Below, piece after piece: positions 1 to 6,306 of a stretch of 53,333 nucleotides of DNA. The stretch is from Phycisphaerales bacterium (GTDB lineage Bacteria > Planctomycetota > Phycisphaerae > UBA1845 > UTPLA1). Under the pieces are notes generated by a model. It worked only from the letters and a program-made list of their open reading frames with translations, was not told where the DNA came from and searched no databases. The position numbers were made by a program, and so were the translations under genes. The first letter of the stretch is position 1. Each line of letters starts with the position of its first letter. The stretch is from NCBI GenBank assembly GCA_022360095.1, contig JAKSDK010000795.1, positions 1 to 53,333 on the forward strand, read 5' to 3'.

Positions 1-124
1 GGAATCCTTTCCTGTCTTTTGCTCGCTCCAGCTATGCACGTTTTTGTTCTCCGCAACGAATACATGGGAAGTGATTCCCATGGAGATGGGACCGAGAAAG
101 GATTCTCGGTCCAGCACAGCATAG

Positions 125-547
125 TTACCAATCTGTACAGTCATCAAATGTCGATAGTGGTGCCGTGTTCCCTTCAAATCCTTTAGAGAGCAAAAGCGAT
201 TCGACTTTCTTCGCGAAATCCAGATCGATTTTTATGGAACCGAACTGCAAATGCACGATATATTTTCTTTCGGACAACCACATTGACTGAAGTGATACCA
301 TCGCCTTATCTTTTTTGATGGTCAAAAAAATAGATTGGAAATCGCTTGGCGTGTCTTTCTGCGTAGTGTAGTTTACGATTTCGATCTCTGCATCAAGAGA
401 TTCGAGAATCGAGGGCCAACTGCCGAGAAACTCATGAGGGAGGTTGAAACCCCTGCCGAGACGTTTGAATGGTACGCGTTTTTTATTCATCTTGGTTAGA
501 ATCCAATAATGCCCCTCAGTATCTCCCTGAGCATAACTTTGAAACAA
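125..547 (-). CDS. Hypothetical small protein directly downstream of the Rhs toxin C-terminus; putative cognate immunity protein. An in-frame ATG at 490 (MNKKRVPF...) is a likely alternative start that would not overlap the toxin stop at 496.
   Basis: ORF track (140 aa). It sits on the same strand immediately 3' of the Rhs CT domain. The region is strikingly AT-rich relative to the rest of the window. No recognisable family. Confidence 0.4.
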   Translation of the reverse strand: MFQSYAQGDTEGHYWILTKMNKKRVPFKRLGRGFNLPHEFLGSWPSILESLDAEIEIVNYTTQKDTPSDFQSIFLTIKKDKAMVSLQSMWLSERKYIVHLQFGSIKIDLDFAKKVESLLLSKGFEGNTAPLSTFDDCTDW

Positions 548-2594
548 CTACCCGTACAGAGCGCACCTGCACCAGACACTCTGCCAGTAAACAAAGCTGG
601 GATTGGAATTCCTTGAAACCAGCGAGGGGCCCAACCAGATGCTGCAAGAGCAATTCTACCGTAGAAGGGATTCCCGAAAAACCAAGTCGGTCGCAAGCCG
701 ACACCGTAGAAAAACGATCCTCCTCGATAACCCATCCACATAACACCTGGCGACAAACACGGTGCACCGAATTGAAAAGCCAAGCCCGCGCCGATGACAA
801 CAGTGCCCGCCTTACCAACTGCGATGAGTTGCTCTTCGTTCAGTTTCGTCGTTGCTAACGCCCACCGGTCCCACCAGATATCAGGAGCCAGTCCCGATGG
901 ATCGACATTCATCGCAGGTGAATTATCAATGTATACGTAAACATTTGCTCCACCTTTGATCCCGATAGGATCGCGCTGCATAAAACGTCCAGAGTAAGGA
1001 TCATAGTAGCGCGCCCCAACGTGCAACCAGCCGAGTTCAGCCAAGGGGTCGCACCAGCCACTGCCGGAAAGGCCGCCGCTGTTGTAGCAACCTGCCGATT
1101 GGTAGCCATACGCGCCTACGTAGCCGTAACGAGAATCAACGCTGCCTTGCGAATTCAAACGCTCGCCGAATGCGGAGTAGGCGACTTCTTGTAGAATTGG
1201 CGGATTGCCTACATCACTGCCGAGGATTTGTCGTGTGCTGCCGATCTGGTTGTCGGCAATATAGGCTGGCATATCGGTCTCACTCGGATCGGCGAAGCCG
1301 AGCTCGGAGAGATACGCTGTGCCTTCTGTCACTACGCCGTTGGAATCGACGGTGTAGTCGCTGTAGATGTCGTCGCCGAGATACTCTCGCCATTGCGCAC
1401 CGGGCAGAACGGCGAAGTTGTCGTTCGGATCGCGCGGGCGAATCATGTAACGCTGGCGACCGGATTGGTGACGATACTCGGCAGCGCCGTCCCAGACGAC
1501 ATTGGTCAGGTCGCCTGTGACCGAGTCGTAGTTGCCCGATCCGGAAACGGCCAGCCAGAGCTGGCCCGACGTGGTGTAATAGAACCAATAGGCGCGCGTT
1601 TCCGGTGTTGGCTGCAATGTTTCTTGCACCAGCCGGGCGATGTTGCCTTCGGCGCCGTAGAGATACCATCTCCGTTCGATCGTCTCGCCCGTGAAGGCCA
1701 CGACGTCGGACGACAGCAGACGGTTGTTGTGCTGGTCACCGTCGTCGGGCTCGGTGATGTCGTAGTGGTAATAGGTCGTGTGCCCGGCGATGAAATTGGT
1801 CTTTGTTAAACGATTGCCGCCCTGGTCGTAGGTGTAGGCAAAGTCGTACGTCAGCGGCGCGCCGCGCATTTCGTAGACCAGCCGGTTGCGAAAGTCGTAT
1901 TCGAACAACCGCGTCTCGCTCGAACCCTGCGAATCCGTCTCGGTGATCGCCTCCAGTAAACCATCGGCCGTGTAAGTGTAGCCCAGTTGCAATTGGGTTT
2001 GTCCCGTTGCGCACTCTCGCCCTCAATGACGATCCCACCGGCATTCAGAACGGAACCGACCGAGATCGTCGGCCAGAAGGCCAGCGTCGTCTGGGCCAGC
2101 GGGTCCGGCGGATTCTCGGTTTCGCGACTCTGTTGGCCCCACTCGTCGTACTCGTATTCCGTGACCACGCCGTTCGGGCCCGTCACGCGATACACCTGAC
2201 CGTTCCAGTCGTCGGGATCAGAGCCGGTGAACTCGTTGGCGCCGTAATAGTCGATCGTCGTGACCGCTTCGAAGTTGCCGTAGCCGTCCGCCGGTTCGAT
2301 GATGCTGGTCGGGCTCGTGGGGTGATCGTTGTTCTCGTACCGAATCTCCACCAGCTTGAACGGATTGCTCGTGCCCGGCACGAGGTCGTCGGGCGGGGCC
2401 ATGGTTCGAAGGTTGTTCAACGCGTCGTAGGTGAAGGTCGTGACGTGACCCAGTTGCTGAAAAAAGACGCCCCGCCGTTCTCGGTGGAGAAGGCGAGGCG
2501 TGCGAGGGAGTGGTGAATCGGGCGCTACCGTAGAGGAGACAAAGAAATCACTCCTCACCATCGTCATGGGCGGGAGGAATGAAATAGCGTCCAC
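496..2594 (-). CDS. Rhs/YD-repeat polymorphic toxin fragment, an orphan rhs-CT module. It is split into two frames (ORFs 1851..2594 and 496..1992) by a frameshift near 2005-2025. No convincing translational start.
   Basis: Repeated YD motifs (TFTYDALNNL, VTEYEYDEWG, LTYDFAYTYDQGGN, YYHYDITEPDD). RHS core-end signature ...GARYYDPYSGRFMQRDPIGIKGG... is followed by a ~130-aa non-repetitive C-terminal tail. The two ORFs join in sense (..GGIVIEGE / GQTQLQLGYTY..) if one indel is assumed. The annotated N-terminus reads through a terminator hairpin at 2468-2497. Confidence 0.6.
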
Positions 2595-2677
2595 ACTCCG
2601 GACAACGGTTTTCGACCAAGCCTGTTAGATCGTATCCGCAGAAATAACAAGCGTTGGCCGATTTTGAAACTTTTCTC
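2461..2677. repeat. Copy A of a ~215-bp direct repeat, ~93% identical to 3040..3256. It holds the 3' end of a zinc-ribbon gene plus a near-perfect palindromic hairpin with a T-tract on the minus strand (a terminator-like element).
   Basis: Direct comparison of the two stretches. The hairpin core is gccccgccgttctcNgtggagaaggcgNggc. Confidence 0.8.
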
Positions 2678-2856
2678 GGGTAAAACCAAGACAACGCGAT
2701 TCCTGATAGCCCAAGAGCGACACTCATCACCCAACAAAGAATCCACGAGGTGCCAAGCTGGTGGCGAACGCTATATACCCACAAAGATCCAAAGACTCCG
2801 AGACCGACGAAGAAAACCAAGTATATCACCCTCGCGATGAGTAACAACGTCTTCAA
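2548..2856 (-). CDS. Small membrane protein with two predicted TM helices and a C-terminal zinc-ribbon (CYFCGYDLTGLVENRCPECG). Paralog of 3112..3456.
   Basis: ORF track. Hydrophobic N-terminal half. The C-terminal 36 aa are identical to those of ORF 3112..3456. Confidence 0.6.
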   Translation of the reverse strand: MKTLLLIARVIYLVFFVGLGVFGSLWVYSVRHQLGTSWILCWVMSVALGLSGIALSWFYPRKVSKSANACYFCGYDLTGLVENRCPECGRYFIPPAHDDGEE

Positions 2857-3039
2857 TGATTACCTCCTAAGGAGCGCCTTCAGGTTCGGAGGAGTCGTTT
2901 GATGAATTAAATTTACACTGCAAAGCGTATTGCGTGCTGAACCGCGAATCCTTTCTCGGTCTCTATGCGTCACAGGAATCTTTTCCTGATCGGTTTCCTC
3001 GCGACGGCGAATGCGCTCTCTTGAAGAAAGAGGCCCCGC

Positions 3040-3256
3040 CGTTCTCCGTGGAGAAGGCGGGGCGTGCGAGGGAGTGGTGAATCGGGTGCTACCGTAGAGG
3101 AGACGAAGAAATCATTCCTCACCATCATCATGGGCGGGAGGAATGAAATAGCGCCCACACTCCGGACAACGGTTCTCGACCAAGCCTGTTAGATCGTATC
3201 CGCAGAAATAACAAGCGTTGGCCGGTTTTGAAATCTTTTTCGGGTAGTTCCAAGTC
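3040..3256. repeat. Copy B of the ~215-bp direct repeat (see 2461..2677). Its hairpin at 3047-3075 is followed on the minus strand by tctttcttc.
   Basis: Direct sequence comparison. The ORF 2970..3158 (MGAISFLPPMMMVRNDFFVSSTVAPDSPLPRTPRLL...) mirrors the start of ORF 1851..2594 because both lie inside the repeat. Confidence 0.8.
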
Positions 3257-3456
3257 AATAATATTGCCAATATTCCTGGGATTGCTATCGCCCAGAGCAG
3301 CATAATCGAGATGGGCTTGATACCAAGGCTGTACTCCCAGATTGACGCGGCGATCAAACCGCCGATGGTGACAACAAGGTACGATGCCTTAACGATATGC
3401 GGCAGCATCCTCACTGGACGTCTCCTAAGGGGTATGTTCCAGTCCGGAGGAATCAT
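3112..3456 (-). CDS. Small membrane protein with two predicted TM helices and a C-terminal zinc-ribbon (CYFCGYDLTGLVENRCPECG). Its start overlaps the 3' end of the upstream secreted-protein gene.
   Basis: ORF track. Same architecture as 2548..2856 with a diverged N-terminus. It overlaps gene 3425..4828 by 32 nt. Confidence 0.6.
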   Translation of the reverse strand: MIPPDWNIPLRRRPVRMLPHIVKASYLVVTIGGLIAASIWEYSLGIKPISIMLLWAIAIPGILAILLTWNYPKKISKPANACYFCGYDLTGLVENRCPECGRYFIPPAHDDGEE

Positions 3457-4828
3457 CAGGTGAATTACAGTTTATACTGCAAGGTATGTCACCGTCGCAC
3501 GGGCATTCCAGTGCGGTCACGCATGCACACCAATTCTGCTGTATTTGATCCAGCAATTCTTGTAGCGCCTCCGAAAGCCGGTCGATTTTCTTTTGCGCCT
3601 CTTTGATAGCAATTTCGGTCAGGTCCTTGGCTTCCGCCTTTGCGTCGGCGATTGTGATTTCTGCAAGCGCCGTGGCTGCATACATGGCAATAGCATAGGT
3701 GGCCGCCGCCGTCACGGCGCAACCAATCGCTGCCCACTGACCTACAGGTGGGGGGATGAGCAAAAATCTTCCGCAAACACCTGTAGCTACAACCCACGCC
3801 AATGTTGCGGCTAACATTTGCATTTCCATTGTCTTCAATGCTGTATTGATCTTCCGATCGCGCGCTCGATTTATCTTTTCCCGTTCCAGCTTGAGATCCT
3901 CATTGATGTCATCTACGGCCTCATTGTAATCCTCCCACGCTTTGTTCTCCGCTTGGGCAGAATTATTATGGCAGTCATCGCAGTCTACTGAGTTTGGGAT
4001 CGCAAGGATATCATCAATGGCGTCGAGCAAGTCGGCCACTGAGGACGGCTGAAAATCGATATCATCGGACGGCGCCTGTTGATCGCCATCGTCGGCAGCC
4101 TGTTCCGGTTCGTCGGGAATCTCGATGAGATCCTGGAAGAGAACGCCGCACTGATCGACTTGGCCCTGGATCAGAAGATACGACACACTCGTGCCTGTCT
4201 CTGCGTCGATTCCATGTGTCGCTTCGCCGTAGATCGAAAGCTCGGCCGTCCCGGTGGAGATCGTGCCGCCGACCTGGGCCTTGGAAACCTGGTCTGCTTC
4301 GATTAGCTCCGCGTAGTCTTCCTCGGATATCGCGTTGTCCGTCAATGATTGAATAAGTTGGCTGGCCGTCGCAGTGTCCTCCACCAGATCGGAGACCTCG
4401 GCGATGAGCAATTGCTGCTCGACTGATCCAGCGATGAGCTGTCGAAGATTGACGGGCCGGTAGGTCGTGATCTCCAGCGTGAACGCGAAGCCGTGTCGCG
4501 TTGTCCCCTGGTAGACACCGTTGCCGGTCACCGGGTCATTCAACGGAAAGAGGAGGTCCCGATCGGCGTAGTTTGGAAGCTCCGTGTCCGGGTCAACATA
4601 ATCCATCCACGGTTCATCGACGCCGAAGAGTGTCTTGAAGATGTCCCGTTGTTCGTCGAGATAGGTCCAGTTTTCAGAAAGCTGTGAATAGTCTGTGTTC
4701 TCGCAAATCGGAACGGCGTCTCCGGGGGTGAACGAAAGCGGCTGGTCTCCTAGCACCACGACAGGCGTCCACAACATCAGGATCATACATAAGACGGCGG
4801 TTGCTTTTTGGTTGAATCTTTGAATCAT
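3425..4828 (-). CDS. Secreted/membrane hypothetical protein. It has a signal peptide, an acidic linker, coiled-coil segments, two TM helices and a Cys-rich C-terminus.
   Basis: The ORF track gives 3425..5047. The start is refined to ATG 4828 (MIQRFNQKATAVLCMILMLWTPVVVLG = signal peptide), preceded by AAGGAGA 7 nt upstream on the minus strand. Confidence 0.6.
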   Translation of the reverse strand: MIQRFNQKATAVLCMILMLWTPVVVLGDQPLSFTPGDAVPICENTDYSQLSENWTYLDEQRDIFKTLFGVDEPWMDYVDPDTELPNYADRDLLFPLNDPVTGNGVYQGTTRHGFAFTLEITTYRPVNLRQLIAGSVEQQLLIAEVSDLVEDTATASQLIQSLTDNAISEEDYAELIEADQVSKAQVGGTISTGTAELSIYGEATHGIDAETGTSVSYLLIQGQVDQCGVLFQDLIEIPDEPEQAADDGDQQAPSDDIDFQPSSVADLLDAIDDILAIPNSVDCDDCHNNSAQAENKAWEDYNEAVDDINEDLKLEREKINRARDRKINTALKTMEMQMLAATLAWVVATGVCGRFLLIPPPVGQWAAIGCAVTAAATYAIAMYAATALAEITIADAKAEAKDLTEIAIKEAQKKIDRLSEALQELLDQIQQNWCACVTALECPCDGDIPCSINCNSPDDSSGLEHTP

Positions 4829-5172: not shown

Positions 5173-6306
5173 TCAGGAATTCATTTCTTCGATGAACGCG
5201 CCGGGATTGTTGGCCCATTTCTCCGCTTCAAGGGGCGTGATCACGCCGCTCTTGGCCAGGTGTGCCAAGGAACGTTCCAACGTAATCATGCGCTCGTCGG
5301 GCGTGTTCTTGGTGCGCGTTTGCAACTGGCTGTAGATCTGCTCGATCTTGGAAAGACGGATGAGGTTCGAGACCGAGTAAATGTTGTTCAACACTTCCAT
5401 CGCCACGACACGGCCGCTGCCGTCCGCACGGGGAATCAGCTTTTGCGAAATGATGTGACTGAGTCCCAGAGAAAGCTGGCTCGCGACCTCGTCCTGTTGG
5501 TTGGGGGGGAACATGTCCAGGACGCGAGTGACCGTGCCCCGAGCATCGCGTGTATGCAACGTGGAGAAGACCAGGTGGCCCGTTTCCGCGGCGGTCAGTG
5601 TCCAGGTCGTCGAATCGCGATCGCGCATCTCACCGACGAAGATCACGTCGGGGTCCTCGCGCAGGCAGTCGCGCAGGCCGCGCTCATAGCTGAGCACGTC
5701 GCGTCCCACTTCTCGCTGGGAAATCAGCGCAGCCTTGCTCTTCAACCGATACTCCACCGGATCTTCGAGCGTGATGATGCGGCAGGCACGGGTTTCCGCG
5801 ATGCGATCGAGCATGGATGCGATGGTCGTCGACTTTCCGGCGCCGGTGACGCCTGTCACCAGAACGAGACCCTGCTGCTTTTGGATGATGTCCCGCCATA
5901 CGTCGTTGGGAAACCCAATCGCTTCGACGGACGGCGGCGTAGACTCCAGTGCGCGCACGGCAATCGCCAGGCCGTCATTTTCGTGAAAACAGTTTAGTCG
6001 AAACTGCATCTTCTCCGTAAAGCAGGAGCTGTCGGCAGAGCGATGCTCCTCCAAGTGTTCCAGCTCCGTTTCGCTAAGCAGGCATTCAACCAGTGCGCGA
6101 ACGGTCTCTTCGTCCAGCGGCGGGCCTTTCATTTTTTGCAGGAGGCCGTCCACACGGTAGATCGGCGGGTTGCCGGCTTTAAGATGCAGATCGGACACAC
6201 GCATCGAACCTGCCTTGACGAAGTAGTCGAGCAGGTCGAGCATGCTCAGCTTGCTGTCCGGTCCGACGGCATAGACTTTGGAATCGAGTTCGTATTTGGA
6301 AGACAT
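5173..6306 (-). CDS. pilT: Type IV pilus retraction ATPase PilT (PilT/PilU family).
   Basis: Walker A GVTGAGKSTT, GEMRD Asp box, FSTLHT His box. The ORF track gives 5173..6429; the ATG at 6306 (MSSKYELD...) is the likely start. Confidence 0.85.
   Translation of the reverse strand: MSSKYELDSKVYAVGPDSKLSMLDLLDYFVKAGSMRVSDLHLKAGNPPIYRVDGLLQKMKGPPLDEETVRALVECLLSETELEHLEEHRSADSSCFTEKMQFRLNCFHENDGLAIAVRALESTPPSVEAIGFPNDVWRDIIQKQQGLVLVTGVTGAGKSTTIASMLDRIAETRACRIITLEDPVEYRLKSKAALISQREVGRDVLSYERGLRDCLREDPDVIFVGEMRDRDSTTWTLTAAETGHLVFSTLHTRDARGTVTRVLDMFPPNQQDEVASQLSLGLSHIISQKLIPRADGSGRVVAMEVLNNIYSVSNLIRLSKIEQIYSQLQTRTKNTPDERMITLERSLAHLAKSGVITPLEAEKWANNPGAFIEEMNS

Follow-up and report, generated by a model that had tools for sequence, protein, structure and literature searches.

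The window analysed here is a complete 53,333-bp NCBI contig from the metagenome-assembled genome (MAG) of an uncultured marine 'Phycisphaerales bacterium'. It contains two small neighbouring genes, A and B (locus tags MI923_15630 and MI923_15640), which follow a gene for a 467-aa protein (MI923_15645) and whose 3' ends lie within the two copies of a 237-nt direct repeat. Our analysis indicates, with a probability of roughly three in four, that this repeat arose by gene conversion or chimeric recombination between members of a small tandem paralogue array. The first-pass annotation had already read the repeat as a signature of recombination or gene conversion, which is borne out by a sharp breakpoint, by the contrast at silent sites on its two sides, and by incongruent relationships to a related locus (contig L071). 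It had also tied the repeat to the mechanism of rhs orphan arrays, and this link to Rhs or toxin shuffling does not hold up.

The two repeat copies have a spacing of 564 nt and are 92.4% identical, as found by repeat search and confirmed in register by MAFFT, and they represent the one long direct repeat family detected in the first 8 kb of the window. Once the more variable first 30 nt are excluded, the repeat amounts to ~207 nt at 95% identity. Two test sequences from the repeat, a 21-mer and a 27-mer, are each present at exactly two places in the 53-kb window, with no occurrence expected in shuffled sequences. Each copy starts in juxtamembrane codons (W-x-YP-x-K) and ends at a U-tract; on the minus strand it carries the 3' end of the gene, a 3' untranslated region (UTR) of ~45 nt, a strong hairpin, and the U-tract. 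The copies had initially been placed at 2461-2677 and 3040-3256, with a length of 215 bp and ~93% identity. The identity is near the measured value and the first copy fits, but the length is 237 nt and the second copy is ~15 nt out of register, its in-register partner being 3025-3241.

Genes A and B have the same orientation, lie 564 nt apart, and encode proteins that are 59% identical overall. This identity is distributed very unevenly. The last 36 residues are the same in both proteins (ANACYFCGYDLTGLVENRCPECGRYFIPPAHDDGEE), whereas the first 57 aligned residues share only 17, in agreement with the earlier description of identical C-terminal codons and diverged N-termini. Along the 564-nt units, identity is 60-77% in the leader (~75 nt), ~50% in the half coding for the transmembrane (TM) helices, and 93-100% from ~2680 to 2460. 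The N-terminal half shows a proportion of synonymous differences (pS) of 0.68, which is saturated, and a proportion of non-synonymous differences (pN) of 0.48 (Nei-Gojobori). By the same method, the last 36 codons show a pS of 0.17 and a pN of 0, with four synonymous and no non-synonymous differences, and the 3' UTR together with the terminator differs at 6 of 90 positions (6.7%). A maximum chi-square of 110.8, reached in 0 of 2000 permutations, locates the breakpoint at ~2683-2695. The permutation outcome is unchanged if the comparison is restricted to third codon positions plus UTR, with mismatches at 30 of 52 sites (58%) on the left of the breakpoint and at 12 of 139 (8.6%) on its right. 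With silent sites differing four-fold in this way, the pattern can be attributed neither to purifying selection nor to rapid evolution of the protein in its TM half. All four changes in the tail are synonymous (P = 0.002 under neutrality), an indication that purifying selection has acted on both tails ever since the putative recombination event. With their tails maintained in this way, A and B are both likely to be functional genes, each having a terminator to itself.

Relatives of the two proteins were sought by an exhaustive HMMER search of 1.84 billion representatives. Among the 938 clusters of the zinc-ribbon family found at E <= 1e-3, the only close relative is P0005, a 200-aa protein consisting of two fused modules. 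It belongs to a related locus in marine metagenomes (contigs L070-L072, from one TARA assembly in ENA and Logan assemblies of sequencing runs), which serves as the sole outgroup locus. The order in this locus is a gene for a 468-aa protein, a 10-nt spacer, the fused modules M1-M2 (P0005), a leader, the module M3, a terminator hairpin, and a convergent peptidase S9 gene, and no RHS (rearrangement hotspot) sequence is found in it. Module number differs between the lineages, with three in the related lineage and two in that of the window. The three modules have clearly different tails, and a tail and terminator of the repeat type are present only in the last module, M3. The 3' end and terminator of M3 match copy A at 77% and copy B at 73.6%, the match with copy B extending 60 nt further upstream.

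Comparison of the modules gives different relationships for the two halves of the proteins. In the C-terminal parts, A and B agree at 40 of 43 residues, and each of them agrees with M3 at 31-33 of 42, with M2 at 25-26 of 40, and with M1 at 19-20 of 41. In the N-terminal halves, the pair of A and B is the lowest of all pairs (17/57, 30%) and that of B and M3 the highest (26/57, 46%), and this order points to a split of the A and B TM halves before the lineage split. The full-length identity between B and M3 (60%) equals that of the neighbouring 467/468-aa pair (59%), which makes gene B the likely ortholog of the terminal module M3. Between the lineages, pS is 0.64 in the 467-aa gene and 0.48 in the tails of B and M3, both well above the 0.17 of the A and B tails. 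Judged from these comparisons, the tails and terminators of A and B coalesced after the lineage split, and their TM halves separated before it.

Each of the two proteins contains two hydrophobic helices followed by a predicted C-terminal CxxC-x14-CxxC zinc ribbon, whose four cysteines are present and invariant in both. The helices reach hydropathy maxima of 1.9-2.6 (Kyte-Doolittle, 19-residue windows), with window values of 2.55 and 1.87 in gene A. The charge distribution suggests that both termini, and hence the zinc ribbon, are cytoplasmic. Searches of NCBIfam and Pfam with A and B return only generic zinc-ribbon matches below threshold, with 17.5-20.7 bits against Pfam Zn_ribbon_3 and DZR and cut-offs of 27-27.3, and PADLOC gives no defence-system match for either gene. 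Gene A starts with TTG, located 7 nt 3' of AGGAGG. The numbering of the NCBI tags (15630 for gene A, 15640 for gene B and 15645 for the 467-aa gene) implies an annotated MI923_15635 between A and B (window 2857-3111).

A GC-rich stem-loop and a U-tract are found shortly 3' of the stop codon in both copies, as is typical of a Rho-independent terminator. The spacer is ~45 nt, the hairpins lying 47-49 nt past the stop codons. Hairpin A has a folding energy of -25.7 kcal/mol (z -5.0 versus shuffles) and the tail UCUUUUUU, and hairpin B has -25.9 kcal/mol (z -5.2) and the interrupted tail CUCUUUCUUC. Moreover, the stem is invariant between the window lineage and L071. These features suggest that the hairpins may function as terminators of the Rho-independent type. 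A simple terminator scanner missed both of them, probably owing to the bulge in the stem. The palindrome with a U-tract reported earlier for each copy is recovered as a strong hairpin in both, although the stems are of 15 and 13 bp with a bulge rather than of 14 bp, and the U-tract of copy B is interrupted.

The repeat region is represented in eight independent metagenome assemblies (contigs L001-L008) from at least seven samples (ENA CARD22-1 SAMN242928xx, ERZ273142xx, and Logan SRR18532244). All eight contigs agree base for base with the repeat region and its copy-specific differences wherever they overlap, and both copies lie entirely within four of them. Several of the short contigs stop within the second copy, which a true repeat would lead one to expect. 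Within 2458-3456 no single-nucleotide polymorphism (SNP) is found among the eight assemblies, all of which apparently represent one population. Overall, the assemblies show nine SNPs, located in the 467-aa gene and in an RHS fragment that adjoins copy A; none lies in gene A or B, and six of the nine cluster at 2078-2200 inside the RHS fragment.

The following course of events would account for these observations. Genes A and B would belong to a short tandem array of units, each composed of a leader, two TM helices and a zinc ribbon. A lineage-restricted operon of marine Phycisphaerales would hold both the 467-aa gene and, downstream of it, this array. As old paralogues, the TM halves of A and B would have diverged before the split from the only known relative. 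After the lineage split, non-reciprocal homologous recombination would have swapped the 3' end of one gene for that of the other, either as a gene-conversion tract or through an unequal crossover that made a chimera; the type and direction of the event are our reading of the present arrangement. The exchange probably started in the conserved juxtamembrane and zinc-ribbon coding sequence and carried the terminator along, which would thereby have been duplicated. The ancestral owner of the tail was most likely gene B, the presumed M3 ortholog.

Several observations weigh against this scheme. The M3-like gene B comes first and gene A follows the terminator of B, an order that fits poorly with simple conversion, so that extra rearrangements such as module loss and duplication must be assumed. 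Homology is present today on the 5' side (juxtamembrane region and leader), but none exists past the U-tract that could anchor the 3' end of a conversion; its absence might be due to unequal crossover or to an RHS insertion that came later. The leaders of A and B are more similar than the N-terminal coding parts, which requires either constraint or a second exchange. In addition, the orthology assignments are weak, since there is a single outgroup locus and the N-terminal identities are only 30-46%, and the 18 differences between A and B split about evenly when polarised with L071 and thus do not reveal which gene was the donor. Gene A also has a mosaic leader, in which the 5' part is similar to the 3' end of the 467-aa gene, the 3' part to the M3 leader of L071.

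Three other accounts of the repeat were weighed against recombination. A recent tandem duplication could have copied the 564-nt unit in full, with very fast divergence, either positively selected or relaxed, thereafter confined to the TM half. This would agree with a spacing of exactly one full unit, with leaders that are still 60-77% identical, and with the many substitutions that TM segments tolerate. We regard it as unlikely: the contrast between a pS of 0.68 in the N-terminal half and 0.17 in the tail is beyond the reach of protein-level selection, third positions and UTR show the same contrast (58% versus 8.6% mismatches), and the N-terminal identity of A and B (30%) is below that of B and M3 (46%), so that the N-terminal split predates that of the lineages. 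The opposite view, an old duplication after which purifying selection on zinc ribbon and terminator alone kept the tails alike, without any recombination, can draw on the zinc ribbon being the most conserved part family-wide, on the invariant terminator stem, and on codon identity at conserved residues, which is higher in the tails of B and M3 (26/34) than in the neighbouring gene (148/275; Fisher P = 0.016). It nevertheless appears quite improbable, because the A and B tails (pS 0.17, spacer 6.7%) have diverged less than the orthologous tails compared here (pS 0.48, spacer ~30-40%), and the three modules of the relative have clearly different tails. Finally, a collapsed or chimeric repeat in a metagenome-assembled contig might be suspected, as the MAG contig terminates in a repeat cluster and several short contigs break inside the second copy. 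Such an artefact is extremely unlikely in view of eight contigs from different samples and assemblers that are identical wherever they overlap 2458-3456, four of them spanning both copies, and of the 18 fixed differences that distinguish the two copies.

The remaining alternative is the shuffling of polymorphic-toxin cassettes in the manner of Rhs orphans, in which cassettes for variable membrane proteins, immunity genes perhaps, would be exchanged at toxin loci, with the conserved 237-nt unit serving as the recombination handle. The truncated RHS fragment, accompanied by a candidate immunity gene, starts exactly at the end of copy A, the RHS similarity beginning directly after the U-tract of terminator A. 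Downstream of them, contig L004 carries small genes separated by a repeated element, including another protein with TM helices and a double zinc ribbon. Short, arrayed RHS pieces are common among the homologs of the RHS fragment in metagenome contigs, and tandem immunity paralogues are known to recombine via conserved blocks (PMC9484751). However, no rhs sequence lies inside the repeat and no full-length rhs within the window, and the orthologous array L070-L072 is devoid of RHS. The conserved part stands at the 3' end, unlike the 5' position in Rhs/CdiA exchange, and three other family members occur in housekeeping or mixed contexts; PADLOC gives no match for A or B. Further copies beside other polymorphic-toxin loci, which the first-pass annotation had proposed to look for, were not found: the repeat-encoded tail occurs in no other protein among 5.8 billion clusters, and JGI metagenomes contain no match to the tail DNA (a 35-nt pattern). 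Within the limits of the public data, the repeat occurs only here and shows no strain variation, the two outcomes that the first-pass annotation had named as speaking against its reading; the contig collection scanned does not include the MAG of the window itself. On these grounds Rhs-orphan-type shuffling is quite unlikely; adjoining an RHS fragment does not by itself place a repeat in a toxin-shuffling system.

A more far-reaching proposal, which we consider doubtful, is that the 467-aa gene and the tandem TM/zinc-ribbon modules form a self-contained, lineage-restricted system, in which conversion keeps the cytoplasmic zinc-ribbon tail uniform for docking to one common partner. If so, the TM halves could diversify freely and supply a small set of membrane adaptors or immunity-like proteins, recombination would use the 3' block, terminator included, as its built-in handle, and the multi-module, sometimes near-identical architecture in ~940 clusters would reflect the same process family-wide.

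Table 1 Coordinates of the repeat, the genes and the neighbouring elements in the window
Feature	Position	Strand	Description	Basis
R element part	1..119	-	~160-nt complete element cut by contig end	L004 runs past window position 1
Low-GC open reading frame (ORF)	125..547	-	140 aa (callers 121 aa), downstream of RHS tip; candidate immunity gene	Position only
5'-truncated RHS fragment	496..2457	-	Frameshift near 1992-2010; YD repeats, Rhs-associated core, ~130-aa C-terminal tip	PF05593 7e-11, TIGR03696 3e-17, two ORFs/frames
Repeat copy A	2458..2694	-	Last ~45-49 codons of gene A, 3' UTR, terminator	Repeat search, alignment
Terminator-like hairpin A	2460..2501	-	15 bp, 1-nt bulge, loop CACC, then U6	Fold, stem conserved in L071
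Gene A	2548..2856	-	102 aa, MI923_15630 / MCG8406625.1	ORF list, exact NCBI protein match
Leader of gene A	2857..2932	-	60-77% identical to the stretch 5' of gene B (the 3' end of the 467-aa gene)	Identity profile, five-way alignment
R remnant	2933..2988	-	56 nt, right end, between terminator B and gene A leader	Repeat search, blastn
Repeat copy B	3022..3258	-	Last ~45-49 codons of gene B, 3' UTR, terminator	Repeat search, alignment
Terminator-like hairpin B	3023..3063	-	13 bp, 1-nt bulge, loop CACG, interrupted U-tract CUCUUUCUUC	Fold
Gene B	3112..3414	-	100 aa, MI923_15640 / MCG8406627.1; other callers start at 3456 or 3408	ORF list, NCBI match
467-aa partner gene MI923_15645	3425..4828	-	Directly upstream of the module array in both known lineages	ORF, homology

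The RHS fragment lies directly downstream of terminator A. Its frameshift is present in every assembly. After DPSGL comes a C-terminal tip of ~130 aa, rich in glycine and hydrophobic, which has no family match, and the best non-self homologs of the fragment are at most 54% identical. The N-terminal piece aligns from residues 1-2 of longer homologs, which are themselves apparently N-terminally incomplete, so that the alignment does not inform the truncation point. The low-GC ORF that follows the tip has no family match in Pfam, NCBIfam or PADLOC. We read the fragment as a decaying orphan piece, unrelated to the repeat, which reached the end of the array by insertion or rearrangement and did so solely in this lineage.

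The 467-aa protein has an N-terminal signal or anchor and a Cys-rich C-terminus (WCxCVTALECxCDG..PCSxNCNS); it also contains an acidic stretch and a long helical hairpin that includes hydrophobic segments. Its sole homolog among 5.8 billion clusters is the 468-aa protein of the related locus, with 59% identity, and its profile has no match in JGI metagenomes. In both loci the TM/zinc-ribbon modules begin 10 nt downstream of the gene. An AlphaFold model calculated from the two-sequence alignment has a pLDDT (predicted local distance difference test score) of 47.8 and is unusable. A PADLOC match to LeoBC (21 bits) in the coiled-coil/TM part is weak and was treated as compositional. The start of the 467-aa gene sits in a low-GC patch (41-47%). 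The analysis draws attention to an ORFan partner gene found in two marine lineages only.

Members of the zinc-ribbon family share the signature CxxCGY(D/N)LxG-x5-CPECG, and the zinc ribbon is the most conserved part throughout. At least two zinc-ribbon modules are present in 90 of the 149 best family matches, and in four of these matches the modules are at least 80% identical to each other. Three other family members that were examined lie in non-toxin contexts, either housekeeping or mixed. The combination of a two-TM hairpin with a C-terminal ribbon, often in tandem, is represented by no curated family in Pfam or NCBIfam, and a literature search on the motif returned no paper containing 'CPECG' and none describing the motif. 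Among the MAG loci examined, the background of the family is Phycisphaerae and planctomycete. Contig L043 encodes two such TM + CxxCGY(N/D)LxG...CPECG proteins near repeats of the R type described below, one of 248 aa with two ribbons (1082-1828) and one of 151 aa with a single ribbon (2569-3024), and the same observation takes in ~6270-6338 of L052. By eye, an ORF nearby in L043 resembles a MazF/PemK-type toxin. These occurrences suggest that accessory regions of the genomes concerned often carry members of the family. What emerges is a large uncharacterised family of membrane-anchored CxxCGYxLxG...CPECG modules prone to tandem duplication.

Further details concern the modules of the related locus. 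M1 and M2 are fused into one 200-aa ORF via a degenerate former leader. In M3 (L071 6588-6887, also in L070 and L072) a 1-nt deletion (ATTTCAAAA to ATTCAAAA) separates the zinc ribbon from the TM half, and M3 is called as the same 74-aa gene in all three contigs (one ENA assembly and two Logan assemblies). Moreover, 42 nt of the second zinc knuckle (CGAGAACCGTTGTCCGGAGTGTGGGCGCTATTTCATTCCTCC; window 3133-3174, L071 6823-6864) are 100% identical between copy B and the relative, the two loci being ~75% identical overall. This local identity may reflect constraint at the nucleotide level, or chance.

A separate dispersed element, termed R, occurs between terminator B and the gene A leader and at the end of the contig, and is not part of the 237-nt repeat. 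It is ~160 nt long and has perfect 28-nt terminal inverted repeats (GTGCTGGACCGAGAATCCTTTCTCGGTC ... GACCGAGAAAGGATTCTCGGTCCAGCAC), each arm being itself a hairpin. Contig L004 contains three copies (3832-3992, 4375-4535 and 5350-5431), and beyond the end of the window contig R separates small genes, including those for a DUF2283 protein and a 249-aa protein with TM helices and a double zinc ribbon. With the loop left free, the 28-nt arm is found exactly at 61 loci in six MAGs (labelled Phycisphaerae, Planctomycetaceae, Planctomycetales or, in one case, Acidobacteriota). A single MAG accounts for about 30 of these, and contig ends are a frequent location. Most commonly the unit measures ~56-60 nt (window 59-117). 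An integron attC reading of the R-separated genes was rejected, as the ends of R are GTGCTGGACC.../...GGTCCAGCAC and no GTTRRRY core is visible by eye at the right-hand boundaries, and as R is dispersed over dozens of contigs per genome; no integrase was seen among the window ORFs inspected. Rfam matches of R in L004 to plant microRNA precursors score 33.9 bits against a gathering threshold of 107 and reflect the long hairpin. These features point to a dispersed repeat resembling repetitive extragenic palindromes (REP), bacterial interspersed mosaic elements (BIME) or miniature inverted-repeat transposable elements (MITE), with which R shares that it is short and palindromic, is scattered over contigs, and can stack in tandem.

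Comparison with known systems places the locus more precisely. Genes A and B resemble the curated families DZR (PF12773), Zn_ribbon_3 (PF13248) and Zn_ribbon_15 (PF17032) in the CxxC-x14-CxxC pattern, and multi-module relatives pass the DZR threshold (P0007, 46.5 bits), whereas A and B themselves stay below every threshold (at most 20.7 bits versus 27). The likeness to Rhs orphan arrays (PMC3967940, PMC3150448) consists in the 5'-truncated rhs fragment and the downstream small ORF that adjoin the repeat, and in recombination between repeats as a common theme. In those arrays the shared DNA is the rhs core 5' of variable toxin tips, with a full-length rhs upstream (PMC3967940, PMC3150448), whereas the shared DNA of our locus is the 3' end of unrelated small membrane-protein genes. 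The closer parallel is with tandem paralogues under concerted evolution. Among bacterial paralogues, tufA and tufB are the classical case of gene conversion and concerted evolution. The immunity genes esaG and tipC of the type VII secretion system offer a recent example of recombining paralogues in tandem arrays (PMC9484751). Compared with such systems, the present locus has a single homology block, located at the 3' end and running through the terminator, with no variation in copy number or sequence in the sampled population and no demonstrated toxin partner. The mechanism is ordinary and well known, and its setting is an uncharacterised, lineage-restricted gene family; the locus offers a clean, datable case of a tandem array in which partial gene conversion takes a terminator with it, and carries little mechanistic weight beyond that. 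With concerted tandem paralogues it shares the sharply bounded block of high identity that includes silent and non-coding sites, the chimeric gene structure, and the lineage-variable number of modules.

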